From the sequence record OR167180: 64,000 bases of DNA. One strand, given 5' to 3'. Positions within the stretch are counted from its first letter, which is position 1. Each line of letters begins with the position of its first letter. Below the pieces are notes generated by a model that worked only from the letters and a program-made list of their open reading frames with translations, searched no databases and was not told where the DNA came from. The stretch is from Escherichia phage MIZ4. Positions 1 to 62,978 of the stretch are shown here, piece by piece. A program made the translations under genes and the position numbers.

Positions 1-44
1 ATTAAGCAGGTTATTCGATCACTGTCACCAGTGAAAGCCCCATA

Positions 45-1283
45 TCAGTTTAGGGAAGTAAGGTCAAAGCTCATCATCCAACGGTAAGCATTCGGCACAG
101 GTTCTTTTACGAATGCGCCAGGATAAGTCTGCTTAGGCTGTATCTTGTTCTCCGGTACTACTTTACCCTCAGCTTTCAGAGATCCGAAGATAATAGCATC
201 CCATACTTTCATCGGGTTATAAACATGGTTAAATTTAATCTTTGCATAGAAACATAGGCTATACACCAGATCGATAAATCCACGCTTTTTATCAATCGCC
301 AGCACACGGTCAACGTCGCCGATGTTATAATCTATGTAAAGTTGATGGTTATCATCACGCAATTTCTTTAACGGACCATCATAATCAACCTTACCGATTC
401 CTGTCTCATATTCAGCAACATAATCTAACGCATATGTTGGTTGAGTCGTAAAGCTAAATTTCTTGTACAGGTCAATATAATCAAGGCTTTCGATCCCCAT
501 GATCGTAAATGCTTCACGCTCGTTGCCAAAATCATCCTGTGAGATTCGGGATTTAATCTTACCGCACGGGCTTAGACGGTTAGCGGTTCTACTTCCGAAC
601 TTATTACTGATACGTTTAATGATATATGGAATATCGAATGTTTCTGTGTTCCAGCCAGTGAAACCAACGGGTCGGTTTTCCTCAAAGAATCGGATGTATT
701 CTAACAGCAATTCATCTTCTGTGTCATAGACGTTATAAACAACGCGCTCTACAATATCAGGTCGAAGAATAGACTTGCTTGCTTCCCAGATTTCACCGCT
801 TTTTCCTTTCAAATCAAATACAAAGAAACGATCATGTACGGAATCATAATGCGTAATTGCATCGATAGGATATTTCGCTTCTTCTGGTTTAGGAAATTCC
901 GGTGCAGTGACCTCGATATCAACCCATGCTACACGGATTTTATTTCGGTCATATCGAATCTCGCCTTTATATGTATCGGACAGATAGGAGATGATAAAAT
1001 CATCCATCCCTAGTGCCTCCTGCCCCATTTCTCCCATCTTTTTACGCCATTTGTTGGCCTCGTTCATAGATGGGAATTTTTTAGCAATGCAAGGCTTGCC
1101 ATAGATATCTTTATAATTCGTAACCATACCAGGCGCGGCATGATGAAATAAAGTTGGCGTATATTCAACGTAACGCTCTTGTTCTTGTCCAGCATCATCA
1201 ATATAACGCTCGTAGATCTTATCACCCACTCGCTCACATGACAGAAAATACATAATATAAACTCCTTCACTTACGAAAGACAC
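45..1283 (-). CDS. 43: DNA polymerase (family B, T4 gp43-like), N-terminal exonuclease-domain fragment; frame ends at an in-frame TGA inside motif A
   Basis: Translation aligns by eye to the T4 gp43 N-terminus (KDIYGK, FPSM, LGMDDF, DAITHYD, LDYIDLYKKFSF, IDYNIGDV, MSFDLTSL); stop at 45-47 where T4 continues YPSII. Confidence 0.85.
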   Translation of the reverse strand: MSFVSEGVYIMYFLSCERVGDKIYERYIDDAGQEQERYVEYTPTLFHHAAPGMVTNYKDIYGKPCIAKKFPSMNEANKWRKKMGEMGQEALGMDDFIISYLSDTYKGEIRYDRNKIRVAWVDIEVTAPEFPKPEEAKYPIDAITHYDSVHDRFFVFDLKGKSGEIWEASKSILRPDIVERVVYNVYDTEDELLLEYIRFFEENRPVGFTGWNTETFDIPYIIKRISNKFGSRTANRLSPCGKIKSRISQDDFGNEREAFTIMGIESLDYIDLYKKFSFTTQPTYALDYVAEYETGIGKVDYDGPLKKLRDDNHQLYIDYNIGDVDRVLAIDKKRGFIDLVYSLCFYAKIKFNHVYNPMKVWDAIIFGSLKAEGKVVPENKIQPKQTYPGAFVKEPVPNAYRWMMSFDLTSLN

Positions 1284-8131: not shown

Positions 8132-9157
8132 CTAACTTTTTGCGCTATTTACTTCGGCTAAAAGTTCATCAGAAATACGCTTGACCGCCGCAAGTTCTTC
8201 CGGTTCTAGGTTTTGTTCTTCCAGATATTCATAGACCATCTGAATAGTGCTTTTAACTTCAATAACACCTGTTTCCTGTGATGCGCTACTCTCCAGCTTA
8301 TGGACCACTTTTAGCTTGTGTACAACGGCCTCTAACGCGCTTTCTAACTTAGTTAACCCATTATCAGCGACCGTTGCGATAAGACGCACACTAAGCCCCT
8401 TAAAGCGTTCTACATCGATTTTATCATCTGACGGGTAAGTGATACGCACATGATAAGTTTTGTCATTCTGGATAAACTCTTTTTTGTGTGTATCGGTATC
8501 GAATACCCAAAACCCACGCGGATCGTTTTCGTCACCCGCCGTTAGTGTGTATGGTGTACCTATATACGTTACGTTACCGCCATCACTGATAGTATGAAAG
8601 TGACCCGAAAACACTTCACGGTATTTCTTTAGGAAGTCCGCGCTATAACCTTCGGATTTTAGCCCTTTATAGAAATAGTAACCGGACAATTCCCAATGGC
8701 CTACACAATATTCGCTGAATGAGTTTTGAATAAACTCTAAAATCTCTGATTTATTGTCATCACAAAACCACGGGAACAGATCAAATGATACACCATCAAA
8801 GGTGACTGTTTCCGGCTTATCAATAACCTTAATGCAATCATACTGGCTTAACACTTCACGCGGTGCGTTAGGCTGGATCTTGTTTCGTTTAAACATATCA
8901 TGATTCCCAACCGTGATATAACAAGTAATACCAGCCTCTTCCAGTAGCGGGATGATTTTCGTTCTATTAAAACGCATAGTTGCATGTGTGATTGCTTTTC
9001 GGCAATCAAACCAGTCCCCTGTCTGAATCCATGCCTTAATATTATGTTTTTTTGAATAATCGACTGCCTTTTTAATAGTATCAAGAATATACTCATGTAT
9101 CCACGGATCATCGTTGCCGATACCAGTATGCAGATCACCCAAAAGCAAAATTTTCAT
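8132..9157 (-). CDS. 47: recombination nuclease gp47 (Mre11-like phosphoesterase)
   Basis: MKILLLGDLH, TGDWFD, VGNHD, GHWE, GHFH, GTPYTLTAGDENDPRGFW match T4 gp47. Confidence 0.85.
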   Translation of the reverse strand: MKILLLGDLHTGIGNDDPWIHEYILDTIKKAVDYSKKHNIKAWIQTGDWFDCRKAITHATMRFNRTKIIPLLEEAGITCYITVGNHDMFKRNKIQPNAPREVLSQYDCIKVIDKPETVTFDGVSFDLFPWFCDDNKSEILEFIQNSFSEYCVGHWELSGYYFYKGLKSEGYSADFLKKYREVFSGHFHTISDGGNVTYIGTPYTLTAGDENDPRGFWVFDTDTHKKEFIQNDKTYHVRITYPSDDKIDVERFKGLSVRLIATVADNGLTKLESALEAVVHKLKVVHKLESSASQETGVIEVKSTIQMVYEYLEEQNLEPEELAAVKRISDELLAEVNSAKS

Positions 9158-9172
9158 ATTATACATAATCTC

Positions 9173-9727
9173 CTAAAAATTTTTAACACCATATTCACCA
9201 AAATAAAGATCAACCGCTTTGTCATAAGCTCTGGCCGCATCTTCTTCGTTGACATAATACCCAAGAGATATTAGTTTATCATTATTTCGTATTCTTGCAA
9301 CCCATTTCTTCGTATGTTTATGCCAGCTAACCCCTTTATACTTGCTTGCTTTATTCTTGTACTTTCCAACGTTACAAGCATTTTTCTTTGCGTCGGACTC
9401 TCTAAGATTGCGTGGTGCGTTGTTTAAAGGATTTCGGTCTATATGATCTATAATTTCTGGTTGTGTTCCATGCTCAAGAAACCATACAATACGATGTACA
9501 TATGGCTTTAAAACCCTCCCATTATCCATAACAATTGCAATTTGGAGATGATCCTGACTTTTAAAAGTTTTTACTTTATCTCCTGCCTTATAAAACTTTC
9601 CTTCGTAATTCTTTCCTCCGGCTCGGCTATTCTTTAAATGATAAAGAATACCATCGTCGTCATGTCTATATCTTTCTCGTATAATTCGTTGCGTTTCTTC
9701 ATCCCACAATTTGGAACGTCTACTCAT
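9173..9727 (-). CDS. freestanding HNH homing endonuclease with C-terminal AP2-type DNA-binding domain
   Basis: HNH motif IDHIDRNPLNN; AP2-like YKGVSWHKHTKKWVARIR..LGYY..EEDAARAYDKA; sits where T4 has a-gt. Confidence 0.75.
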   Translation of the reverse strand: MSRRSKLWDEETQRIIRERYRHDDDGILYHLKNSRAGGKNYEGKFYKAGDKVKTFKSQDHLQIAIVMDNGRVLKPYVHRIVWFLEHGTQPEIIDHIDRNPLNNAPRNLRESDAKKNACNVGKYKNKASKYKGVSWHKHTKKWVARIRNNDKLISLGYYVNEEDAARAYDKAVDLYFGEYGVKNF

Positions 9728-9817
9728 AGTCTCTTCCTCTCTTCGTTTTCGATGCTCTCACTATATCACAGAAAAATAAAAAGGGAAACCCCTTTCAGAG
9801 TCTCCCTTATAAAGCCA

Positions 9818-10105
9818 TTACAGCATACTTAATACCGTTTGCCGTGTACTAATCCACATAGCAGAAAGCAGTTCTGGTGTGTGTGGCTGTTTGTAGATAT
9901 CACGTAATTTTCCGATAGCGTAGATATACGCATCACGATTATCATCGATGATAGCTTGCTCAGCCCACCGCTTAAGTCGTGCAATCTCTCGCGAGTTCTT
10001 ACGCAAGATCTTTTCCGCTTTCTTAGCGGCTTTAGCCTCTAGTTCTGCTTGTACTTTGTCTACTTCATTCACTGCAATCTTGTCATGCTGTTCATTGCAA
10101 GTCAT
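9818..10105 (-). CDS. hypothetical protein
   Basis: 95-aa ORF. Confidence 0.35.
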   Translation of the reverse strand: MTCNEQHDKIAVNEVDKVQAELEAKAAKKAEKILRKNSREIARLKRWAEQAIIDDNRDAYIYAIGKLRDIYKQPHTPELLSAMWISTRQTVLSML

Positions 10106-10106
10106 A

Positions 10107-10340
10107 TTATTTTACCTCTGGGATATAATCAATTATTAAAGAAAATTCATCTTCTGATACATTATAGCTATGTGAGATTGTACCCGTCAAGACCTCAAGA
10201 TCCGGTGATTTGATATTGCACGGATCGATAATCACCGGAACGCCGCAATCTCTCAAAAATAATTTGGCGAAATACGGCACAAGGTCAGTTTCAAACTCTG
10301 CTTCTTCCAGCAAACGGGAAATGTTAATTTTCAATCTCAT
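10107..10340 (-). CDS. hypothetical protein
   Basis: 77-aa ORF. Confidence 0.35.
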
Positions 10341-10857
10341 AAAATTGGTCCAGGCTAGGCAATTCCTCGGTCAATACATCTTCAACCTTTGGCGCTTTCG
10401 GTTTATTGACCGATTCCTCGTAGTTGTTGATTTTATCGTAAATGTCCTGTATGAATGCCTCATCAGCAATCTGGCACATATCAGCGTCGCGTTCGTCATA
10501 TACATGATGCACAAAATATTTGTATTTTGCGGCTGTCGCTGTTCTTTCTTTTTTAATGCGCTGCACAAAAGCATTAAAGCACGCTTGCGTGATGTAAGCA
10601 TGAGGATTTTTATACTTTGTCTCGTCAAAATTAATCAAACCCTTGACCGCCGCTTCGATTCCATCGTCGATCATTTCTTCGCGCCATGTTTGACTATAGC
10701 CAGAAAAGTTAAAACGCCGTGATAGATTTTTAGAGATTTGCATAATTGCCAGGCCGATTTGGTCACTCATTGGCACTTGCCGACCTTCTGCTGCAATTCG
10801 TTGTTTCCAACGGCAAATTTCTTCGTAAAGCTCTTTATTGTTTACATAATCAGACAC
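10324..10857 (-). CDS. 55: late-transcription sigma factor gp55
   Basis: [70 protein letters not shown] match T4 gp55. Confidence 0.85.
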
Positions 10858-10897: not shown

Positions 10898-12367
10898 CTA
10901 TTCCCCATTACCATTATACTTTCTTTGCTTAGTTATCCACACTCTAACCATCTCTACTGATTCACCGTCAGAGGGATCAAGAGTTTTTCCTTTTTTCTTC
11001 ATGCGGTACTTAAATCCGTTAAATCTTGCATTCTCTTGCTCGTTAAAGTCGAACATCTTTTTAAATGATTTTCTCCCTTTACGCTCACCGCATTCTAGCG
11101 GAATCATTCGGTCTGTTATTACATTGGCATTAGGTAGAAACGTTTTTAGATAATCTACCAACGCCCAATCAGGAACATATAGATTAACATTCTCCTTGCT
11201 CTCGTTGTCTCTCAGGTTACAACGCAAACATAATTGAAATGCTGGTTCCAGATAATCAGACACATGACGCGCTTTCAAAAACTCATTTGTCGGGAGATCA
11301 CAACTATTAGCAAGACCTTTTAAAATATCAATCTCCCATCGTTGAGGGTTAAAGCTGAACATCACAGCAACATTTTTATGATGAATGTAAGAGTTAAGAC
11401 CATAAGATCCGTAAGGTATCCGCTCACCAATACCATTTGTACACGCTTCACGGTCCCGATTCACGGTATAAATGAAGTCATCACCACATTCATTTTTAAC
11501 CATATCAACCAGACGTTCAAAGGTATTGTTTGTTTCTGACTGGTGACGCGACCATCGTTCGGAGTCCGTCATAAGGATGATGTTAACTCTATCTGTATTT
11601 TTATACTCTTTGAAATATAGTCTGGATTCTAGCGCACTCGGAACAAAATCGCAATTTGCATAGTATCGTAGATACTTCCCACTATATGTATCAAAGAGAT
11701 TTGCACATGCTATCGTAACCTTTTTAAAGTCTCCCCACGTACCGTGTTTGTTATCGTTCAAGAAAACAATTTTCGACCCATTCTTCCGGTGGCCTTCGTT
11801 ATGTTTTACCATAACGTTGATTTTCTTCTCTAATAACGCCTCATAAAGCCCTCTAAGAGAAGAATCGATCATATCAGTACCATCCTTTGCACTTTCTATC
11901 TTTTCTTTGATAGCGGCCTTCTCAGAGTCTTTTAGAACTAAGTTCTGTAGGCATTCCGATTCGTCGGCGATTGGTTCGCAATGCTTCGTGATAAGTTCAA
12001 GATTAGACTTAAACGGATACTCATTAAATTCAACCAGTTGAGGAACTTCATCAATGTAAAGAGCATAATCACCAAACATTTTTGAACGTTCCATATTAGA
12101 TAACGCTGTATGTGTAATGAATATCACATCAGCACCATCTTTAACTGATTGCATTATCGACGCTTGCACTGTCTTAAGGCTTCTTAGTCTTGTGCTATCA
12201 ATCAAGACAGCACGACCGCCCATTCTTTTAAACTTATTGTAAGATTGTTCACTTAAAACACGAGATGGCGAAGCAATAACCGCTTTTTCTTTTGTCTCTA
12301 GGACGTGGGAAAGTATAGCATCAGTTTTCCCCGCCGCTGGCAATGCGATTAATGTTTCAATCTTCAT
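10898..12367 (-). CDS. P-loop NTPase of unknown function
   Basis: 489 aa; Walker A-like LPAAGKT near N-terminus, Walker B-like LYIDEV; no T4 counterpart recognised. Confidence 0.5.
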   Translation of the reverse strand: MKIETLIALPAAGKTDAILSHVLETKEKAVIASPSRVLSEQSYNKFKRMGGRAVLIDSTRLRSLKTVQASIMQSVKDGADVIFITHTALSNMERSKMFGDYALYIDEVPQLVEFNEYPFKSNLELITKHCEPIADESECLQNLVLKDSEKAAIKEKIESAKDGTDMIDSSLRGLYEALLEKKINVMVKHNEGHRKNGSKIVFLNDNKHGTWGDFKKVTIACANLFDTYSGKYLRYYANCDFVPSALESRLYFKEYKNTDRVNIILMTDSERWSRHQSETNNTFERLVDMVKNECGDDFIYTVNRDREACTNGIGERIPYGSYGLNSYIHHKNVAVMFSFNPQRWEIDILKGLANSCDLPTNEFLKARHVSDYLEPAFQLCLRCNLRDNESKENVNLYVPDWALVDYLKTFLPNANVITDRMIPLECGERKGRKSFKKMFDFNEQENARFNGFKYRMKKKGKTLDPSDGESVEMVRVWITKQRKYNGNGE

Positions 12368-12834: not shown

Positions 12835-13093
12835 AAATCTCCCTCAGTTCTTTATAGCCTCCAATGTGCTCGTTGTCAATGAATATCTGGGGGTATACAA
12901 ATCGGAGGCTCTTTGAGTTCAGCCTCCCCGCCAGTTCTTCAATCATATCACGGTCGGGAATAATGTCAACCCCAACCTGCTTGAATACTGGTTTAAGTGT
13001 ATACGGAATACCCAGATCATCCAGTAGCTTCATTGCACTAATACAACCATAACAATGATAAGCCTCTTTCGGTATGCCGTATATCTCGATCAT
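12824..13093 (-). CDS. glutaredoxin-like protein (NrdH-like)
   Basis: CxxC active site CYGC; glutaredoxin fold motif VYPQIFIDNEHIGGY. Confidence 0.7.
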   Translation of the reverse strand: MIEIYGIPKEAYHCYGCISAMKLLDDLGIPYTLKPVFKQVGVDIIPDRDMIEELAGRLNSKSLRFVYPQIFIDNEHIGGYKELREIYDY

Positions 13094-13587
13094 TTCTCAG
13101 CCTTTAATCTTTCTAGTTCTTCTTCCAGTTCCTTGATCCGTTGGTCACGTTCAAAGTCACGCTGCAACTTAGTGGCGAATACTCGTTTAAACTGATTGTA
13201 ATCATCGATTTTAAACACTTCTTCTTCGCCATAGCGACGCACAGAAACTTCGTAGTTGTTGAAAAATTGTTCCAACATTGCATCAGTAGTCAGTTCTGAC
13301 GACACCACTTTAAAATAACGTTCTTCGGATTGCAAAAACCAGTTGTGCGCGTATTCCCGTACATCATCAACATCTCGACAGGTGTATGTTTTTCCATCAA
13401 TTTCAATCGCAGAAACATATTCGATATCTGATGCAATTTTTTCAAAAGCGATAACTTTAAATGTACGGTCACCGATAAAGTCTGCTATTGCATCATTTGC
13501 AACACTGGTTGCAAAGGCTTTCCGCGCTCGCTCGTTTTTCCACTGATAGGTCATACCAACAACAAACATATTACCATCAACAAACAT
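13090..13587 (-). CDS. member of paralogous repeat-domain family (1 module)
   Basis: VGMTYQWK..F, IEIDGKTYT, ERYFKVV; C-terminal coiled coil. Confidence 0.45.
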   Translation of the reverse strand: MFVDGNMFVVGMTYQWKNERARKAFATSVANDAIADFIGDRTFKVIAFEKIASDIEYVSAIEIDGKTYTCRDVDDVREYAHNWFLQSEERYFKVVSSELTTDAMLEQFFNNYEVSVRRYGEEEVFKIDDYNQFKRVFATKLQRDFERDQRIKELEEELERLKAEK

Positions 13588-13588
13588 A

Positions 13589-14413
13589 TTACCATCCTCG
13601 CTCTTTACCAATCAAAAATTCAACTTCACGACGTTTAATGTCTTCTTGAAGGTCTTTAATCTTCTGGCGATCTTGCATTATTTCGTCCATCTTGTCAAGT
13701 GCTGCGATGAAATCATCGAAACGTTCAAAGGTTTTACCTTCATTTGCTTCGCCAAATTTAACCATTGTCAGGCCGTAACGACTACTAAACAGACGTTTCA
13801 ACTGTCCAACGATTTTAGAATCAGTGGTTATAACTTCCAATTCTTCTACTTCACGAAAGAATTTTCTATCAGAATCAATAAACCAGCTAGTTCCTTTATG
13901 GTTGCTATCTTCGGTTGCACTCATTAGAGTATGGTCTTTACCATCAATTTCAATTACATCAATTTGCCCACATGGACGAACATTTTTAACAGTAAAAGGT
14001 CTATAATTTATTGCTCGTGCAATAACATAATTAAGATTAGATACGTTTTCAGCATAATGGCAGAAGTCGGTCATAGCATTCACGTCTTTCCAAGTATAAG
14101 TTTTACCAACTTCCCATTTCTGGGGAACTTCTTCAACTTCACGAAAGAATTTTCTATCGAATGGACTAAAGAAATATGTTGCAGTCCAAATGTCTTTTCC
14201 TGTAGCAGTTTTCGCCGTATGATAAACACCGTCTAGCTCTATTGCATTAATCCAACCGTTGCCATCGATCTCGATGATGGTAAATGGCTTGTCACCAATA
14301 GCTGCACTAATATCGCTGTTAAGTGGAGAAAGAACACCTTCTCCGTTAGTAATAAACTCAGTTTTAGCGTTTACATCTTTCCAAGTGTAAGTTTTACCAA
14401 TTTCCCATTTCAT
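13589..14413 (-). CDS. member of paralogous repeat-domain family (2 tandem modules)
   Basis: MKWEIGKTYTWKDVNAKTEF..DRKFFREVEE and QKWEVGKTYTWKDVNAMTDF..DRKFFREVEE inside one protein. Confidence 0.5.
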   Translation of the reverse strand: MKWEIGKTYTWKDVNAKTEFITNGEGVLSPLNSDISAAIGDKPFTIIEIDGNGWINAIELDGVYHTAKTATGKDIWTATYFFSPFDRKFFREVEEVPQKWEVGKTYTWKDVNAMTDFCHYAENVSNLNYVIARAINYRPFTVKNVRPCGQIDVIEIDGKDHTLMSATEDSNHKGTSWFIDSDRKFFREVEELEVITTDSKIVGQLKRLFSSRYGLTMVKFGEANEGKTFERFDDFIAALDKMDEIMQDRQKIKDLQEDIKRREVEFLIGKERGW

Positions 14414-22734: not shown

Positions 22735-23547
22735 TCAATCTACGTTAGTTACATAAACTTCTTGCGTATCAGAAGACTTACCACCTGAACGATCTAGGCA
22801 ATAGGTCTTATTCAACAAGACGCAGTTTAAATCATTCCGCTTGATAAAGTCAAGAAGATGATCATTTACCTTTCCCTTATGATGTGTGACATTACTGATA
22901 CCAAACTGAAAACCACGCGCCATAATAGATTCTACCCACTGATAGAATTTAATCTCTTCTTCTTCACTCCAGAACTTATTATATTCTGCCGATGTGATCC
23001 AATATGGCGGGTCCAAATAAACGAAATCACCTGGCAAGATCTCGATCTCGTCATAGCGACCAGACGTAAAACTGATTCGACCGTCTTTGTTTTCTTCCTT
23101 AAAATTCAGGACACGCTCTACCGCGTTTTCGTTAAAAGTCCGGCGACCAAAATTAGCATTAAATTCTCCCTTCCTGTTATGGCGGTTAATGTTGCTAAAA
23201 CTGTGCTGAATCAGAACAAACAGAGATAGCGGATCTGGATTCTCATTATACTTCTTACGGAATGCCATGTAAGCGTCTTTATCTTCGCGAGACAAACCAT
23301 TTTCGGCAATAATACGCTTGATCGTAGAAACCGGATCAGGACACTCGTCAATCGCTTTGTACGCGTCAATTAAGCGGTGATCATAGTCATTAGCCAGCAC
23401 ATCCCCTTCTACGTACAGAGACACGCTCAAGCCACCACAAAAGGCATCGACAAAGCGGTTATAGTGCTTAGGGAAATACTTACTAACACCAGGCAATAAC
23501 TTTTCCTTATTGCCCGTATAGGGAATTAAACCTAATGCTTTCTTCAT
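22735..23547 (-). CDS. dam: DNA adenine methyltransferase Dam
   Basis: YTGNK, NRFVD.FCGGLSV, catalytic DPPY (FVYLDPPYWI), YNKFWSEE match T4 Dam. Confidence 0.85.
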   Translation of the reverse strand: MKKALGLIPYTGNKEKLLPGVSKYFPKHYNRFVDAFCGGLSVSLYVEGDVLANDYDHRLIDAYKAIDECPDPVSTIKRIIAENGLSREDKDAYMAFRKKYNENPDPLSLFVLIQHSFSNINRHNRKGEFNANFGRRTFNENAVERVLNFKEENKDGRISFTSGRYDEIEILPGDFVYLDPPYWITSAEYNKFWSEEEEIKFYQWVESIMARGFQFGISNVTHHKGKVNDHLLDFIKRNDLNCVLLNKTYCLDRSGGKSSDTQEVYVTNVD

Positions 23548-31827: not shown

Positions 31828-32030
31828 TTACATTTAGGGCAATGCGGTTCTTTAATATAATACCCGTCTGTCTTTGGAACACTAACAGGAGCGGTTTTTA
31901 TATTGTATTCAGTGAAACAACGAAAACAAGTTACGTTTTCTACAGACTGACGTTTCACCCAATCACCGGAATATAGATCATTTTTATTTGTCATATTCAA
32001 CCACCACAATGTTAATGTCTGGAGTAGCAA
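31800..32030 (-). CDS. hypothetical protein
   Basis: 76-aa ORF. Confidence 0.3.
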   Translation of the reverse strand: MLLQTLTLWWLNMTNKNDLYSGDWVKRQSVENVTCFRCFTEYNIKTAPVSVPKTDGYYIKEPHCPKCKCRLYWSHL

Positions 32031-35495: not shown

Positions 35496-36089
35496 TTAAA
35501 CGTATTCAGCAACAACATTATGTTTAAAATTACCGCTCCTTTTTGGATTTGGATTTTTCAATCGACTATGTATTAAATTTTTGTTGTATCCGGTTGCTTT
35601 AGACGCTTCGCCAATACTTTGATAAACAACACCATTAACACGAATCGGACGAGACTTATTAAACAGTTTATTCAATCCGGCATCATATGCATGGTTTTGG
35701 TTTTCTTGCCTCGTTGCGATCTCAAGATTCCAAACACAATTACAAGATTTTACCCCACTTTTATGATTAATTTCAAGACCTTCACAATCACCTATAAAGT
35801 GTTCAGCAACTAGTCTATGAATATAGCGATATTTCTTACTTTCCCCATCATGCAAGCATACATTATAATAACCATCACCAGCGCGTTTAGGTCGGAGTAG
35901 TTTACCTTTAACACGTTTTATAGTAGGGAACTCACCAAATTGATTTCTCTGGATAAACGGAATCTCGCGGTCTAATGAACGGATTCGACCATAGTTAGAC
36001 ACTTGATAAAAACTTTCATATCCTTTAATTGGCTTCCATATCTCAGGGATTTCTACACCATCAATAACAACAAGTTTAAATTCTTCCAT
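35496..36089 (-). CDS. freestanding HNH homing endonuclease (NUMOD4 + HNH)
   Basis: NUMOD4-like YESFYQVSNYGRIRS; HNH HRLVAEHF..INHKSG..CNCVWNLE..TRQEN. Confidence 0.75.
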   Translation of the reverse strand: MEEFKLVVIDGVEIPEIWKPIKGYESFYQVSNYGRIRSLDREIPFIQRNQFGEFPTIKRVKGKLLRPKRAGDGYYNVCLHDGESKKYRYIHRLVAEHFIGDCEGLEINHKSGVKSCNCVWNLEIATRQENQNHAYDAGLNKLFNKSRPIRVNGVVYQSIGEASKATGYNKNLIHSRLKNPNPKRSGNFKHNVVAEYV

Positions 36090-40928: not shown

Positions 40929-40973
40929 AATTTGATTCTCCGTTTAAGAAAGTGTGTTTCGTTTCGATGGGTG

Positions 40974-41003
40974 TATTATGCTATAGGCCGGATCTGGTGT
41001 CAA
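40974..41003 (-). promoter_or_regulatory. early promoter cassette, TTGACA-18-ATAATA
   Basis: minus strand TTGACA CCAGATCCGGCCTATAGC ATAATA then leader CACCCATCGAAACGAAACAC. Confidence 0.5.
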
Positions 41004-41036
41004 CAACTTTTTTAAAAAAATTTTAGGCAATAAAAA

Positions 41037-41056
41037 AGCCACTCCGAAGAGTGGCT
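41037..41056 (-). terminator. rho-independent terminator
   Basis: AGCCACTC TTCG GAGTGGCT then TTTTTTATT on the minus strand. Confidence 0.55.
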
Positions 41057-42997: not shown

Positions 42998-43014
42998 CAC
43001 CTAAAAACAAAAAA

Positions 43015-45063: not shown

Positions 45064-45252
45064 TACTGATTCCTCAAATGAAAATATTTATTAACAATTG
45101 TCGCTTTGCGACGTGCCGTAGGCACTGACTACTTTTTAACCGAAACAAATTTTTATTATTCTAAAGATCTTTCTTCGTTTTGGTTATGTTTTAACCAATA
45201 ACTATATTTTTATACAGTAATAAATAAAACGGGTACTATACGAGGACTTCTT

Positions 45253-49273: not shown

Positions 49274-49843
49274 ATGGTTGAAATTCTTCCGATGAGTTCA
49301 AAATTGGAGGATATCAGCGAGCGAGAAATCTTTGAGGTGGTGTTCTCTTATAAAGCAACGCCACCGGATGCAAATACCACATACACGATTAAAGAGTTTA
49401 AGATCAGCGAGTATCGCCCTAATAAGGGCGTTACCGTTGAAGAAACTAAAATATCTGGTGAGTATCGGGATAGTTTTTCGCTTGGCGCGGATTCTCTTAA
49501 ATATATAACGAAAGATAGAATTAAAAAATCTGCCGGAAGTTTTGATGATTTACCAGATCCAACTACCGCAGATCTATATTATTTTAACGCTCCTACACGT
49601 CTACAGGAGGTTTATACTTATAAAGTAACCCTAACCTATATCCAATCTGTTTCAGAGTCTTCTGGTGGTTCTGATGAAGGAAATAGTGGTGGTTCCAATA
49701 GCCGAGAGGGTGCTGGTGAAACTAATCCGCCTCCGGTAGTAACCGAGCACACAATAGAGAAAGTTTATACTCAAACCGTTTTTGGAAATTGGGATGTGTG
49801 GAGTAAACAGTTAAGAGATTATGTTAGAAGAAGTGAGGGATAA
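49274..49843 (+). CDS. hypothetical protein (5.1 position)
   Basis: 189-aa ORF following gp5. Confidence 0.4.
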   Translation: MVEILPMSSKLEDISEREIFEVVFSYKATPPDANTTYTIKEFKISEYRPNKGVTVEETKISGEYRDSFSLGADSLKYITKDRIKKSAGSFDDLPDPTTADLYYFNAPTRLQEVYTYKVTLTYIQSVSESSGGSDEGNSGGSNSREGAGETNPPPVVTEHTIEKVYTQTVFGNWDVWSKQLRDYVRRSEG

Positions 49844-49844
49844 T

Positions 49845-50384
49845 ATGATTGAAGTAATTCATTACACCAAAGAAGATGAAATTTTATATAATAGACTACA
49901 TGAACTATTTTATGAAGTTGACGGAAAGGTTTATAGAAGGTTCTCTCGTGGACGTTCTAAAGCCGGAAGTCTAGTTGGTGGATTGAAGATAAATCCATGT
50001 GGATATAGATATTGGAGACTTGCTGTTGATGGTAAAGAGTTTCAGAGGTCTCATGTTGTTTATCATATGCATCACGGACACACTCCGAGAAAACCACTAC
50101 AAATAGATCATATTAACACAAACTCCCTTGACGACCGAGTTAGCAATTTAAGACCAGCAACCGTTACCCAACAAATGTACAACCAAAATAAACAATCCGA
50201 TTGCACATCTTCATATATTGGTGTTAATTGGAATAAAAATTCCAAAAAATGGGAAGCTAGAATTAGAGCTAATGGAAAACGAATCCGTTTAGGTCTATTT
50301 GATAATGAAATTGACGCTGCGATTGCCTATAACACCGCTGCATTATCTAGAGATTCAAAAGTTAACAAATTAAACAATGTATGA
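49845..50384 (+). CDS. freestanding HNH homing endonuclease with AP2 domain
   Basis: HNH QIDHINTNSLDDRVSNLR; AP2-like YIGVNWNKNSKKWEARIRANGKRIRLG..EIDAAIAYN; start at the second Met, which has the GAGGG RBS. Confidence 0.75.
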   Translation: MIEVIHYTKEDEILYNRLHELFYEVDGKVYRRFSRGRSKAGSLVGGLKINPCGYRYWRLAVDGKEFQRSHVVYHMHHGHTPRKPLQIDHINTNSLDDRVSNLRPATVTQQMYNQNKQSDCTSSYIGVNWNKNSKKWEARIRANGKRIRLGLFDNEIDAAIAYNTAALSRDSKVNKLNNV

Positions 50385-50399
50385 AGATGGGGGTGTTTA

Positions 50400-50693
50400 A
50401 TGGCTGGATTATCCTACGATAAAGCTAAAACTACAGGGCACGGAAACTACCCACCTACTGTAATTAATGCAACTCAATCTAAGGTATTTGTTGAGGGTAT
50501 CCCTGTATTAGTCGAAGGAGACCCAATTACACCACATACAAAAACAACAAAGCCTTATGATACACACGGGGGAACTACGGTCGCCAGTACCCCGAAAGTA
50601 TTTGTTACCGGAAAGAAAGCAATTCAAATGGCAGATCGTATTAGCTGTGGCGATACCGTCGCTATGGCATCACCGAAGGTATTCATAAAATGA
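50400..50693 (+). CDS. 5.4: PAAR-repeat spike-tip protein gp5.4
   Basis: 97 aa, same length and position as T4 gp5.4; PAAR-like alternation. Confidence 0.65.
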
Positions 50694-52594: not shown

Positions 52595-55500
52595 TTAAAG
52601 CGCCTAGTGTAACTAGCTTGACAATAGAAAAATTGTCTGCTAATCAGGCGTATATCACATGGGATGACGTAGGCGAAAACTTCTTTTATTTTGTGGAGTT
52701 AGCCGAAACCAGAACACGAGACGGGGAGATCATCCCCGTCGATGAGTTAAGCTGGGTAAACCTGGGATATACTGCCGAACAAAACTGGTTTGAGGATAAA
52801 AACCTTTTTCCAGAATATTATTACAAGTTTCGTGTAGCAGTAGCCGCAGAAGGATTTGAACAAAGTAAATGGGTTGAGACCGAAGAGTTTCAGACATTTA
52901 AAACAAACGCATATAATTTTTCTATGATGCGAGAGTTCAACCTTGCAAACGAGTTTATAAAGGAAAAATTTACATACGATAATCGAGAGTATGTCAAGTT
53001 TAATACCGACCTTATTCAAGCATCATTGATGAAGGAAGATTTTGTCTTTAGTCCTGAATATGCAAACATGACAAATATCTCAAACTACATTGTAGTTGAT
53101 GAGAACTTTCATGAAATACAGGACCACATAGAAAAAGTTTGTACTGATATAAACCGCACAATGTTAGCGGAAATGAACGGTGTTTTGTACCTTTTCGAAC
53201 GGTTCCAGCCGATCGTGAAAGTGTCAAATGATAAAGGTCAATCATGGAAAGCATACAAGGCTTTTAATGATCGTGTAGGCAATCCGGTTTCCCGCACATG
53301 CGTTTATCAGTCTAAAACCACTACTTACGTTTTAGGATATGACCGAATCTTTTACGGACGACAAGCTAGCGATACTCGATGGAGCGCGGACGATGTTCGA
53401 TTTAGTGATGATACGATCACTTTTGCAAAGGTTGGTGACGAGAACGATTTAGGATTTGACGTTGAGGTCTTTGGTGTATTTTCCAGATTAACAGGGGACA
53501 CCACAAAATACGCCGAAGCTATGGCGTGCAGTGATGACTATTTGTGGGTTGGTGCTAAAGATGTTATTCGCCGGATTCGTCTTAAGAATACTCCTGTTGA
53601 TACCGTACAGGGTTCTCCTACGTTTGGAGAAAAAATATTCGATCCTGATGTTATCCGAGTAACAGGAAATGATAAAGCTGTCATTCAGAAAATGGATGTG
53701 ATCGACGGTAAATTGCTTGTATTTGTTACTGGTGAAGTTAAACAGCGTTATCAAGATCCGACTAAACCTGAAAACGTTGTCCCGTCAGACGATGCGGGTG
53801 TATACTTAATTGGGAGTGATGGTCTGTCTTTTCAGAGAGTATTTGGCAACACTCCGCAGGAAAGGGAATATATTCAGCATGGGTTCAGTAATATGTCAAC
53901 AAACGGTGATGAGGTGTTCATAAGCCATTATAATCATCACTTCGAAAGCATTTTACCAGATCCAGAAACTGCCGCGAAATATGAATTAAGCGAAGCTGTA
54001 AAATATTCTCAGGAGCCAACTTATCTAACTGATAAGAAAATACATCAAACTACTTTCAGAGCAAGTTATGATGATTTGCGTATTTGGGAATTAGGACCGC
54101 AAGCGTATTATAATGAGGCTGATTATACATGGATGCGTCGAAACGGTGTTCGTGTATGGATCACAAATGATAATCGCCCGTTGGTTGTTTATCCAGAAGT
54201 TGTCTATACGCAGGAAGTTGATACTTCCGGCATTCTTGATAAAAACAGAATTAACCGTGAAGTTTATGATAAAGGGACCGTGACCTGTTATCTTAACAAT
54301 GTTAAATTTGAAGGATTCAAACAATATGCATCCGGTGTAATGTTCCATAAAAACACGGGGGAGATCATTGGGTTCTATCAATTTAACTATCGCGTTCGTG
54401 ATCAGGTTGGTGTATATTGGAAACCTACAAATGTAGCATTTGTAGCTGAATTGCAAAATCAGGTTCGGGAGGTTCCCTGGGTTCCGGTTCACTACGATCG
54501 AGAGCAAGATCCAGATTTGCGACCTTTACTGAATAAGATGACACCGGATAGCTTTTTACTTGAGAACGAAAATTTCAGAAAATTCTCTGAATATTATCTG
54601 CAATTCTTAAGTGATGGTTCAGGAACATATTATAATAAACTAAAAAATCTGATTAAAAACAAATATCCACGCGAGCAAGATGCATATGAGTATCTTTGGT
54701 CAGAGATGAACAAACGAAACATCTATGCAGATAAAAACAAGCGAGATGCGGTCGTAAGATTCTTTGAATCCCGCAAATCAGATTTTTATTCCACTAAGGG
54801 CGTGGAGGCTTCTTACAAGTTCTTGTTTAAGTTACTTTATAATGAAGATGTGGAAATTGAGGTTGAATCACAAGCCGGACTAGAGTATGATATTGTTGTT
54901 AGTTCAACGAACATTGACGAGGATATCGTAGGTCGCACGATTTATACTCCAACCGGACGGGCTAACGTGACGTATCTTGAAAGGGAATATGAAGGTGGAC
55001 GTCTACGCTGGCGAGTAACCATTCATAACCTGATCGGGCGGTTTGAAGAAGGTCAAGTGATCAAATCAGAGAAAACAGCGTTTGAGGGGATGATCCTTGT
55101 TGGTGTACGTGGTAAAGAGTTGTTGAGTAGTTCAATCGACTATATCAACCGCTCACGAAGCCAATACACCATGAAGATTAAAAGTGCATTGCCAGTTTCG
55201 CGCTATGCAAATGATGTAATGCGATTCGTTCATCCTGTCGGCTTTGGGTTTATCGGTGTTACCCTGCTTACGATGTTCATTAACAGTGGGTTGAGCATGA
55301 AGCACACCGAGACTATAATTCAATCTCTGAAAAATTATAAGTTTGACAGCGGATTGCCTAGCGTGTATCCTGATCGGGTGGCAGACCTTGACGTTGACGG
55401 AAACATTAAGAAAGACCCGCTTACCGGAAAAGCATTATACTTAACGTCACCGACAATGGGCGAAGAGTTCCCCGTTCCTCCTGAATATGATCAGGAGAAC

Positions 55501-57032: not shown

Positions 57033-57349
57033 ATATTAAACTGCATTATACAATGGGTAAACCAAAACATCCAATGCATAAAGTGTTTTGGGGCTTGCAT
57101 CTTCAAGAAAAATGGCATGATAACTATTGGTTTTGTGACCATGATAAGAAGTGGCATTCTCAAGATGAAGTTAATGCGATGATGGAACAGGGTATCAAAT
57201 TTAATTACTCTAATTATGACCATAGCATTACTTGTATTCGAAAATTGAAACGGTTTATTCGAAAGAATCCGCAATTTAAAAACTTTGTGTTCTTTATGTC
57301 TCATGTTTATTTGGGGCATAGCGTTACCGTAACAGTAAAGGTTAAATAA
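57020..57349 (+). CDS. hypothetical protein
   Basis: 109-aa histidine/tryptophan-rich ORF. Confidence 0.35.
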   Translation: MARVNIKLHYTMGKPKHPMHKVFWGLHLQEKWHDNYWFCDHDKKWHSQDEVNAMMEQGIKFNYSNYDHSITCIRKLKRFIRKNPQFKNFVFFMSHVYLGHSVTVTVKVK

Positions 57350-58188
57350 TGGCACGACTTTCTAAACAAGAGCAAAAATTACACGATCGGGCGATGGAGT
57401 TGATTAATTCAGATCGTCCATTGACATTTGAAGAAAAAGAATTTTGCTATAACAACTATCATGGCGATGGACTAGGTGGTTCCGGTGCATTCTTTACCCC
57501 AGAATGGCTTGCCTGGGATTTTACCATTGATGCATATTGCACCGGAAAAGTATTAGATCTTTGTGCGGGGATCGGTCGCTTATCTTTTTGTATGTTACAT
57601 CGTTGTAAGCCAGAAAAGATCGTATGCGTCGAACTCAATCCAGAATTTGCGCGGATTGGCAAGCGACTATTACCGGAGGCAGAATGGATCACCAGCGATG
57701 TATTCGAATTTGAGTCAAACGAAAAATTCGATGTGGTGATCAGCAATCCACCTTTCGGTAAAATCAATACTACAGACACAAAGGATGTATTTGAATATAC
57801 TGGCGGTGAGTTTGAATTTAAGGTTATGACGTTAGGCCAGAAGTTTGCCGATGTAGGTTATTTTATTGTTCCTGCTAGTTCCGCTGGGTTTGCTTATTCC
57901 GGCAGACCTTATTATGATGAATCAGTGAAGTCTAATAAATATCTAAAATGGAGCAAACAAACTGGTTTGGTGACTTACGCCGGATGTGGGATCGATACAT
58001 CAATCTATCGCGATGAATGGCATAGTACCAACGTTTTAACAGAAGTGGTTGAGGTTCGGTATTACGAGAAAGAAGCCGTAGAAGCGCCTAAATCACGTCC
58101 CAACGAACAAATAGAAGAAAGTAAGGAGATTACCTTACCGAAACAGGAAAGCGAGTCTGGGACGCTCTCAGATTTGTTTGACATTTAA
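57349..58188 (+). CDS. SAM-dependent N6-adenine methyltransferase (gamma-class motif order)
   Basis: motif X-like GAFFTP, motif I VLDLCAGIGRLS, motif IV ISNPPFG, in that order. Confidence 0.65.
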   Translation: MARLSKQEQKLHDRAMELINSDRPLTFEEKEFCYNNYHGDGLGGSGAFFTPEWLAWDFTIDAYCTGKVLDLCAGIGRLSFCMLHRCKPEKIVCVELNPEFARIGKRLLPEAEWITSDVFEFESNEKFDVVISNPPFGKINTTDTKDVFEYTGGEFEFKVMTLGQKFADVGYFIVPASSAGFAYSGRPYYDESVKSNKYLKWSKQTGLVTYAGCGIDTSIYRDEWHSTNVLTEVVEVRYYEKEAVEAPKSRPNEQIEESKEITLPKQESESGTLSDLFDI

Positions 58189-61574: not shown

Positions 61575-62978
61575 ATGAATAACACTATTAATCACGTAAA
61601 AGACGATGCACAGTATGTTAAGTTTGACCCTACCGGAAATTGGCCTAGCAATATAAAAAACGTACAAGCGGCATTAGCCGCTATTCAGGGATTTGCTATT
61701 GCAGGTCTTCCAACGGCAACCGAAGAAACAGCGGGTATTGCTGAAATTGCTACTCAACAAGAAGTAGATGATGGGTTGGATGGAACTAAAATTGTTACCC
61801 CCAAAACATTGGCTGTTAAGCTGTCAAGACCGGACGCAACAAAACTTGTCAAAGGGATCACTCGCTATGCTAATAACGATGAAGCTATGGGCGATACTCC
61901 AAATATTGCAATTGGTCCTGATACATTAACCCATGTATTCGAGAACAAGAAAGCAACGGAAACCGTACAGGGTACAATTAAAATCTGTTCTATGGATGCG
62001 GCAAAAATAGGTAGCGATGACACTATGGCAGTAACTCCTAAAAAGATGCACGCTGCTATTGCTCAGATTGTTCCAGGGTTGATTCCAGAACAAAACACGG
62101 CGACCGAGTCCCGTGAGGGTTTAGTTAGACTGGCGACAAGCCAACAAACGCTTGCTGGTATTATCAGAGAAGGATTTGCCGTTAGTCCATATGCATTTTC
62201 CAACGCAAGAGCCAATGAAAATCAGGCGGGTACTGTTAAAATTGCCTCATCCCAACAAATGATTGACGGCAATGACAACACAGTAGTAGTATCAGCACAA
62301 AAATTTGCGAACACTAAAGCAACCACTGGACAATTCGGTGTTGTTAAGCTAACAGATAACCCAGGATCAGGCGAGGCAAACACAGCACTGTCGGCAAATG
62401 CTCGTGTATTGCCTCTAAGTGGTGGTGTCGTTACTGGTGATGTGTATCGTCATAGCGGAGGCGACGGAAACCAGTTTATCATTAAAAATGAACTGGATGG
62501 TCTTTGTATGCCTATTGGTGGCATCATTCTTACAGCATTTAACAGTTTCGACCACGCACAATTCAAAATCTGTAACGGTCAATGGTTAAATAAACACCAA
62601 TATCCAGTATTATTTTCACGAATCGGTTTCACTTACGGCGGAGATGGCGGAGACAACTTTGCTCTACCCGATATGCGAGGGCTTGTTGCTAGAGGATGCG
62701 ACCACGGTCGAGGACTAGACCCAGGTCGTGGATTTGGTACTTATCAAGACGACACCATGCAACATATGACAGGTAACTTCCCTGTAGCTAACCGTTGGCG
62801 CGGTTGGACTGGTGGTGCATTTACCATCACAGGTGGTCAATGGAGCACGAACTATAAAAACGGTGGTGGTGATGATTGGGGTAGTATTGTTAACTTTGAC
62901 AGCGCAAGACAGGTTAGAACGTCTGGCGAAACTCGCGTTAAAAGCCTTGCATTAAACTACATGATAAGGGTACAATAA
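61575..62978 (+). CDS. 12: short tail fibre gp12
   Basis: YVKFDPT, VQAALAAI, EIATQQEVDDG..TKIVTPKTLA, GITRYANNDEA match the T4 gp12 N-terminus. Confidence 0.85.
   Translation: MNNTINHVKDDAQYVKFDPTGNWPSNIKNVQAALAAIQGFAIAGLPTATEETAGIAEIATQQEVDDGLDGTKIVTPKTLAVKLSRPDATKLVKGITRYANNDEAMGDTPNIAIGPDTLTHVFENKKATETVQGTIKICSMDAAKIGSDDTMAVTPKKMHAAIAQIVPGLIPEQNTATESREGLVRLATSQQTLAGIIREGFAVSPYAFSNARANENQAGTVKIASSQQMIDGNDNTVVVSAQKFANTKATTGQFGVVKLTDNPGSGEANTALSANARVLPLSGGVVTGDVYRHSGGDGNQFIIKNELDGLCMPIGGIILTAFNSFDHAQFKICNGQWLNKHQYPVLFSRIGFTYGGDGGDNFALPDMRGLVARGCDHGRGLDPGRGFGTYQDDTMQHMTGNFPVANRWRGWTGGAFTITGGQWSTNYKNGGGDDWGSIVNFDSARQVRTSGETRVKSLALNYMIRVQ

Follow-up and report, generated by a model that had tools for sequence, protein, structure and literature searches.

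We propose that the open reading frame (ORF) at positions 9173..9727 of Escherichia phage MIZ4 is a freestanding HNH-AP2 homing endonuclease gene (HEG), the local copy of RB49 ORF040c, which homes into the 5' end of gene 47, and that the absence of the alpha-glucosyltransferase gene a-gt from this interval is a separate trait common to the whole genus; we put the probability of this reading at about 0.8. The DNA analysed, referred to below as the window, is a stretch of 64 kb, and all features placed by coordinates here lie on its minus strand. Whole-genome context was taken from the record of Escherichia phage MIZ5 (OR167181.1; Straboviridae, Krischvirus, the RB49-like genus), with a genome size of 165.5 kb as used in tblastn searches and an annotation of 267 features. 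The window is 99.998% identical to MIZ5 96001..159999, the sole difference being an intergenic homopolymer near window position 43008 (A6 in the window, A5 in MIZ5), such that window coordinates past approximately 43008 are MIZ5 coordinates shifted by +1.

Much about this gene is already known: its existence, its domain architecture, its mobile status (present in RB49 and not in phi1) and the lack of cytosine modification in RB49-like phages were all published or deposited in GenBank between 2003 and 2014. The GenBank record of RB49 describes ORF040c as 'putative endonuclease; similar to HNH endonuclease; DNA-binding AP2 domain', PMC1524935 places RB49ORF040c among putative mobile elements and ties it to the AP2-HNH class of Magnani et al. 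2004, ORF040c is also discussed in PMC2839356, and according to Table 5 of PMC2993671 RB49 has one HNH-AP2 gene, phi1 having none. What the present analysis adds is descriptive: the insert is defined to its exact junctions, an exchange of ribosome-binding sites (RBS) and a patch of gene 47 linked to the insert are described, a different gene is seen to occupy this site in another phage, and there is a hint that the element moved recently. No mapped target for any HNH-AP2 phage endonuclease is apparent in the searchable literature, and as such the details of the junctions and the patch are useful for characterising one.

The ORF runs from an ATG to a TAG stop and encodes 184 aa. Its ortholog, RB49 ORF040c (AAQ15315.1), occupies the same site between a-gt.4 and gene 47, is also 184 aa long and is 98.9% identical in amino acid sequence. 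The first-pass annotation had reported an HNH and an AP2 domain in an ORF at this position between genes 47 and 55, and this description stands. Both Pfam gathering thresholds are passed, by HNH_3 (PF13392) at residues 76-117 (E 1e-11; 44.7 bits against a cut-off of 24.8) and by AP2 (PF00847) at residues 128-171 (E 2.4e-10; 41 bits against a cut-off of 33.3), and PHROG 99, 'HNH endonuclease', matches with E 1.4e-50. An NCBIfam scan of the same ORF returned no family. We place the HNH core at approximately residues 76-117, with D94, H95, N107 and N116, and the AP2 domain at approximately residues 123-184. When the window protein was aligned with five others (two paralogs from MIZ5, two proteins from RB16 and one from Klebsiella phage Matisse), D94, H95, N107 and L108 were invariant across all six, N116 was kept in five, and a set of AP2 positions was likewise invariant. 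Searching the PDB with the single sequence recovered AP2 structures only (WRI1 7wq5, E 9e-10; TEM1 7et4, E 2e-4); the HNH homing endonuclease I-HmuI was absent from this search and surfaced only with the six-sequence family profile, which matched 1u3e over residues 25-101 with E 1.6e-6. The same profile matched the AP2 structures of WRI1, TEM1 and ERF096 with E values from 2.3e-18 (WRI1 7wq5) to 4e-7. The alignment of the profile with 1u3e superposes the 'DH', the 'NLR' and a distal 'N' (D94-H95, N107-L-R and N116), which, from the I-HmuI structure, we take to be the Asp-His general base pair, the Asn of the N-L-R motif and a distal metal-binding Asn. As judged by this alignment, the catalytic core is intact and of the I-HmuI beta-beta-alpha-metal type.

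The window protein is thus a composite of two modules with separate likenesses. With I-HmuI (PDB 1U3E) of Bacillus phage SPO1 it shares the Pfam HNH_3 domain. I-HmuI is intron-encoded, carries a helix-turn-helix module for DNA binding at its C-terminus and nicks one strand; unlike I-HmuI, the window protein is freestanding and has an AP2 domain in place of the helix-turn-helix module. Its C-terminal 60 residues match plant AP2/ERF proteins (WRI1, 7WQ5; ERF1, 1GCC), which in contrast are transcription factors without a nuclease. PMC1524935 cites Magnani et al. 2004 for the proposal that phage HNH-AP2 genes and plant AP2 are linked. Closer in architecture are the HNH-AP2 proteins of RB16/RB43, of Matisse (Slopekvirus) and of coliphage phiS, which have the same two domains, approximately 160-190 aa, 45-47% identity to the window protein and a location at the gene 46/47 locus; RB16 has two related HNH-AP2 genes flanking gene 46, and Matisse has one downstream of gene 46, the copies of both phages being approximately 46% identical to the window protein.

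Alignment with Phi1, which is without the HEG, delimits the complete mobile insert as 570 bp at 9158..9727, comprising the ORF and a 15-bp 3' tail (GAGATTATGTATAAT). The junctions have four nucleotides, ATGA, in common, and the boundaries are therefore ambiguous by up to 4 nt. In the same alignment the insert is placed precisely so as to separate the ATG of gene 47 from its former RBS. The sequence 5' of the HNH ATG is the same as that 5' of the Phi1 gene 47 ATG (ending in GAGAGGAAGAGACT directly before the ATG), and this ancestral gene 47 RBS (GAGAGGAAGAGACT), within the spacer upstream, now drives the HNH ORF. At its other end the insert reads TTT TAG GAG ATT ATG TAT AAT, followed across the junction by ATG AAA ATT of gene 47. 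Here (9158..9178) a GGAG Shine-Dalgarno sequence, which has become that of gene 47, overlaps with the TAG that ends the HNH ORF, and an additional in-frame ATG-TAT-AAT stands ahead of the ancestral gene 47 ATG (9157..9155). The annotated start of gene 47 is the ancestral ATG in RB49 and a codon 9 nt further upstream in MIZ5. The HNH ORF is thus translated from what was the RBS of gene 47, and gene 47 from the GGAG that came with the HEG, so that the insertion leaves the host genes undamaged.

Upstream of the ORF lies an intergenic spacer of 90 bp (9728..9817), which has the same length with and without the insert. Within it the terminator scan found a terminator-like hairpin followed by a T run (9808..9781), and inspection by eye suggested a possible extended -10 element (TGATATAGT; 9768..9760), which was not scored by the promoter scan; that scan of the spacer found no sigma-70-type promoter. 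We considered whether the spacer carries a PeSL cassette of the kind treated in PMC2839356. The hairpin resembles the stem-loop half of such a cassette, yet the scan gave no sigma-70-type promoter, and we do not call it a PeSL.

The insert shows a presence/absence polymorphism at one fixed site in a genus that is otherwise 97% identical. A 4-kb query around the HNH ORF matched MIZ5 at 100% and 57 other Krischvirus records at 90-98%. It was matched in full in only 4 of the 58 Krischvirus records, which represent three phages (MIZ5, Shigella phage JK32 and RB49, the last with two records), whereas among the matches listed 36 other records gave a two-piece match with 86% coverage. The empty site was seen directly in eight records (Phi1, kaaroe, JSE, W115, ELT4, Makalu_002, PHB13 and OZ035808), and in Krischviruses without the HEG merely 90 bp separate a-gt.4 from gene 47. 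Searching IMG/VR for proteins closely related to the endonuclease turned up a single distant locus, at 42% identity, and no extra carriers. The domains, together with this population signature of a sporadic, precise insert with a linked patch in its neighbour, bear out the first-pass annotation in calling the gene a freestanding homing endonuclease.

Two comparisons among the carriers speak to the condition of the gene. Between RB49 and the window, the ORF differs at 8 nt, of which six are synonymous and two are conservative amino acid changes (D25E and I80V). This fits purifying selection on a putatively functional cassette, as an estimate from 8 substitutions, since only three carrier phages are known. 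The JK32 copy is the same as that of MIZ5 at the nucleotide level, and the identity extends over insert and patch together: MIZ5 and JK32 have no differences over the 930 nt of 8948..9877, as against 66 differences in 3286 nt of flanking sequence (approximately 2%), where the next-longest difference-free stretch is approximately 250 nt. Such a tract is consistent with a recently transferred cassette, and ordinary homologous recombination could also yield it.

These data also bear on the possibility that a former HEG is decaying or has been domesticated, and that it is now inactive as a mobile element and either neutral or kept as an AP2-type regulator of the neighbouring recombination genes, its patchiness reflecting loss or ordinary recombination. 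The rarity of the gene (three carrier phages in 58 records) would also fit an element that is being lost, its operon-like position directly upstream of gene 47, to which it supplies the RBS, would suit a resident regulator, and AP2 domains are those of transcription factors in plants. We nevertheless regard this explanation as unlikely. No residue of the catalytic core that aligns with I-HmuI has been lost, and six of the eight substitutions between RB49 and MIZ5 are synonymous. The identical 930-nt cassette on backgrounds that are 2% apart argues for recent transfer over decay, and the 54 records without the insert are scarless, their empty site being the exact ancestral RBS-ATG junction, which points to gain rather than to repeated precise loss.

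The target of the putative enzyme is suggested by the adjoining 5' end of gene 47, where the carriers have a divergent patch at gene 47 nt 18-125 (9033..9140), with 16-17 substitutions relative to the common haplotype of phages without the HEG. Compared with Phi1, the carriers show 17 substitutions in 9041..9140, against a usual background of 0-3 per 50 nt, and on the other side of the insert (9728..9840, 113 nt) there is no difference from Phi1 at all. A search with window 9000..9157 separated the records cleanly, the four carrier records matching at 99% or more and the other 54 at 83.5-89.2%, with none between, and the patch co-segregates perfectly with the HEG across the 58 Krischvirus records. 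Past nt 125 the carriers have a Phi1-type backbone, so that the foreign tract is short. No gene 47 allele closer than 89% to the HEG-linked patch was found in the phage collection outside the carriers, and the IMG/VR scan found no donor lineage for the patch. Changes specific to the carriers include GGTGGC to GGCAAC (G15N) and GTG to ATA (V20I), both of which fall in nt 19-72, a stretch that is almost invariant among phages without the HEG; the remaining changes of the patch are mostly synonymous. On the strength of these linked substitutions, the patch may be a co-conversion tract or an allele that confers immunity to cleavage. The 5' region of gene 47 is, moreover, mosaic among phages without the HEG (up to 13 differences in 120 nt and 34 in 180 nt), so that ordinary recombination may account for some of the patch.

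We infer that gene 47 itself carries the homing site, and the following course of events would account for the arrangement. In a mixed infection, the enzyme would bind the 5' end of gene 47 in a genome without the HEG by means of its AP2 domain and N-terminal region, the candidate target probably being approximately nt 40-62 of gene 47, which hold GGTGGC (GCCACC on the opposite strand). It would then nick or cut at this target; I-HmuI, its nearest relative of solved structure, nicks in a strand-specific manner. Recombination proteins of the T4 type would repair the lesion from the HEG-bearing genome, so that the HEG and a short flank would be copied by co-conversion, and the substituted patch would shield carrier genomes from self-cleavage. 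The specificity of plant AP2/ERF proteins includes the GCC-box, and we speculate that GGTGGC is tied to GCC-box binding of this kind by the phage AP2 domain. In the searchable literature we found no report of a cleavage site, a cleavage assay or homing crosses for the RB49-type enzyme.

An enzyme of this kind could also serve chiefly as a weapon in marker exclusion, cutting the genomes of co-infecting relatives that lack the HEG, or cutting outside gene 47, with homing as a by-product. SegG and MobE of T4 are freestanding HEGs that cause localized marker exclusion, and MIZ5 has at least eight endonuclease genes of the HEG type. PMC2993671 discusses freestanding endonucleases in general as agents through which related phages exchange DNA and also become genetically isolated from one another. 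Such a role overlaps mechanistically with homing and does not exclude it, and the tight linkage of the insert to the adjacent substituted patch argues for a nearby target, as in classical homing; exclusion as the main function is, in our estimation, quite unlikely.

Under the preferred reading, homing into gene 47, the site may have attracted more than one element. At exactly the site of the RB49-type gene, coliphage phiS carries another HNH-AP2 gene, which likewise encodes 184 aa but with only 47% identity, and which is unique to phiS in the phage collection. The gene 47 allele of phiS also alters GGTGGC, in this case to GGTAAT. We tentatively suggest, at somewhat less than even odds, that the RBS-ATG junction of gene 47 is a contested landing site which at least two distant HNH-AP2 genes, one of the RB49 type and one of the phiS type, have invaded independently, each linked to its own substitution of GGTGGC approximately 40 nt into gene 47, and that the RB49-type element is still homing. 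If so, the pair would provide a natural system for learning how the choice of a homing site depends on an AP2 domain, and would also suit the study of competition between HEGs and of the turnover of immunity alleles at an essential Mre11-like gene.

The genes on either side of the insert place it in a familiar interval of the T4-type genome. Gene 47, encoding an Mre11/SbcD-like recombination nuclease subunit, occupies 8132..9157 (8132..9166 with the upstream start) and is recognised by Pfam Metallophos, PHROG 100 and 56.6% identity to T4 gp47. The first-pass annotation had also noted two small ORFs beside the endonuclease gene, and these are real: one (9818..10105) is a homolog of T4 a-gt.4 (DUF2654, Pfam 1.3e-22; tblastn 44% identity, E 2.5e-12) and the other (10107..10340) of T4 a-gt.5 (DUF5491 below threshold; PHROG 1169; tblastn 32% identity, E 1.4e-7). 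Gene 55, for the late-transcription sigma factor, follows at 10324..10857 (PHROG 234, E 4.8e-63; 61% identity to T4 gp55). In T4 the order along transcription is 55, a-gt.5, a-gt.4, a-gt.3, a-gt.2, mobB, a-gt, 47.1, 47. Five of these genes (a-gt.3, a-gt.2, mobB, a-gt and 47.1) are missing from the window phage, in which the HNH-AP2 gene takes up their position.

T4 mobB is also a freestanding HNH-type HEG of the 47-55 interval, but differs from the window gene in having no AP2 domain and in sitting between a-gt and a-gt.2. Kinship between the two was considered and rejected, as in MIZ5 tblastn matched T4 mobB only to the HNH gene associated with gene 43 (E 8e-5) and to nothing at the HNH-AP2 locus.

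Since T4 has its a-gt in the interval of the insert, one could suppose that invasion by the endonuclease caused the loss of a-gt and with it of DNA glucosylation. We reject this, and consider it extremely improbable. Krischviruses without the HEG have a clean, uninterrupted 90-bp spacer at this place and are also without a-gt, so that a-gt is lacking independently of whether the endonuclease gene is there; the genome has no gene 42, and hence no hydroxymethylcytosine to glucosylate; and Table 4 of PMC2993671 gives a-gt in T-even-type phages only. As such, the first-pass annotation was right about the interval when it set the endonuclease where T4 carries a-gt, but wrong in so far as this implied a replacement, given that relatives without the HEG have only 90 bp there. 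T4 itself has an HNH gene, mobB, in the interval.

The absence of glucosyltransferases extends well beyond the locus. The claim that the window contains no glycosyltransferase held up, both by tblastn and in a Pfam scan of 20 window ORFs (those of the locus and the larger uncharacterised ones), in which no glycosyltransferase family was found, and none of the 267 annotated features of MIZ5 is named as a glycosyltransferase. The whole-genome search for gene 42, a-gt and b-gt that the first-pass annotation had proposed likewise found no homolog in MIZ5. With T4 a-gt and b-gt as tblastn queries against the whole 165.5-kb genome, the best E values were 0.63 and 0.57, respectively, and T4 gp42 gave only a weak paralogous match to the td gene (E 0.006, 23% identity). 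The td gene of MIZ5 is a bona fide thymidylate synthase gene, matching the TIGR03284 equivalog at 283.6 bits despite an insertion of approximately 140 aa. Krischviruses, which are without gene 42, a-gt and b-gt, are therefore predicted to have ordinary cytosine in their DNA throughout the genus and independently of the HEG. This is in agreement with the published finding that HpaII and NheI digest RB49 DNA, which contains neither hmC nor glucosyl-hmC (PMC4041780), and with the restriction of a-gt to T-even-type phages (PMC2993671, Table 4). The suggestion that the phage would have non-glucosylated DNA, as in RB49-like phages, is thus well founded in that the phage is itself RB49-like and that MIZ5 lacks all three genes; its confirmation on whole-genome evidence is of modest value.

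Homologs of T4 gene 56 (49% identity) and dam (46% identity) were found in MIZ5 by tblastn with the T4 queries. In the window, the Dam-type N6-adenine DNA methyltransferase gene lies at 22735..23547 (46% identity to T4 Dam; TIGR00571, 150.7 bits; PF02086, 2.4e-29). The first-pass annotation had taken dam as a pointer to non-glucosylated DNA, and this argument fails, since T4 has dam too and the gene is uninformative about glucosylation. A second methyltransferase was also observed in the analysed genome, and its NPPF amino-methyltransferase motif suggests that it is of the adenine type.

The homing endonuclease gene (HEG) upstream of gene 47 is one of at least eight HEG-like genes in Escherichia phage MIZ5 (OR167181.1), the Krischvirus whose record gives the window its whole-genome context. 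A second HNH-AP2 homing-endonuclease paralog of 179 aa, with about 43% identity over the core, lies on the plus strand at window 49845..50384, where it is surrounded by baseplate genes, its immediate neighbours being a hypothetical ORF and a PAAR-motif gene. A third HNH-AP2 paralog, outside the window (MIZ5 record 53828..54424), separates the gene for the helicase loader from that for the ssDNA-binding protein (T4 genes 59 and 32). The window also encodes a freestanding HNH endonuclease of 197 aa that lacks an AP2 domain (35496..36089, minus strand) and adjoins a nucleotidyltransferase of the RlaP family (Pfam 2.3e-14), and the count of HEG-like genes also takes in two GIY-YIG seg-like genes (record 161779..162594 and 163412..164167) that lie a short way beyond the window's right edge.

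The DNA polymerase gene 43 of MIZ5 is annotated as two CDS, one at record 96045..97253 (window 45..1253) and one at record 93461..94867, with an HNH endonuclease ORF between them (record 95078..95902) and a sub-threshold match to the Group I intron model at record 94989..95249 (Rfam RF00028, 32.8 bits, E 1e-5). This arrangement, which spans record 93461..97253, looks like an intron with an HEG inside gene 43, as has likewise been suggested for gene 43 of phage JSE (PMC2993671). Most of this region lies just left of the window, which holds its share at 1..1253.

OZ035808.1, a record labelled 'Krischvirus RB49', lacks the HNH-AP2 insert and carries the HEG-less gene 47 haplotype, the allele without the linked substitution patch. 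Because of these two features, OZ035808.1 is a different isolate from AY343333/NC_005066, despite the species name RB49.

An inverted 110-bp intergenic repeat with 96% identity is present at window 45091..45198 and, on the opposite strand, at MIZ5 record 62403..62512; one copy lies downstream of the tail-tube gene, and tail-fibre genes flank the other. Window 40959..41040 and record 31940..32019 share a shorter repeat of 82 bp (89%).

Baseplate wedge genes flank a second DNA methyltransferase-like gene (window 57349..58188, plus strand), whose 279-aa product has MTS and Eco57I-type domains and an NPPF motif. Outside the window, the 410-aa thymidylate synthase of MIZ5 (record 49325..50557) contains an insertion of about 140 aa, at roughly residues 115-253, that splits the Pfam/TIGRFAM match into two stretches, but the protein still matches TIGR03284 at 283.6 bits and retains the GLPFN motif.

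Directly upstream of gene 55, at a position where T4 has no counterpart, is a 489-aa ORF equivalent to RB49 ORF044c (window 10898..12367, minus strand), which matches PHROG 2467, of unknown function, and gives a marginal match to the DEAD/DEAH helicase N-terminal domain (PF00270, E 3.4e-6). Two adjacent minus-strand ORFs (window 13090..13611 and 13589..14413) have PHROG 5347 repeats in common; the 274-aa member has two copies of the module ('KWE[I/V]GKTYTWKDVNA...FFREVEE'), with weak links to goF-like modulators of mRNA metabolism.
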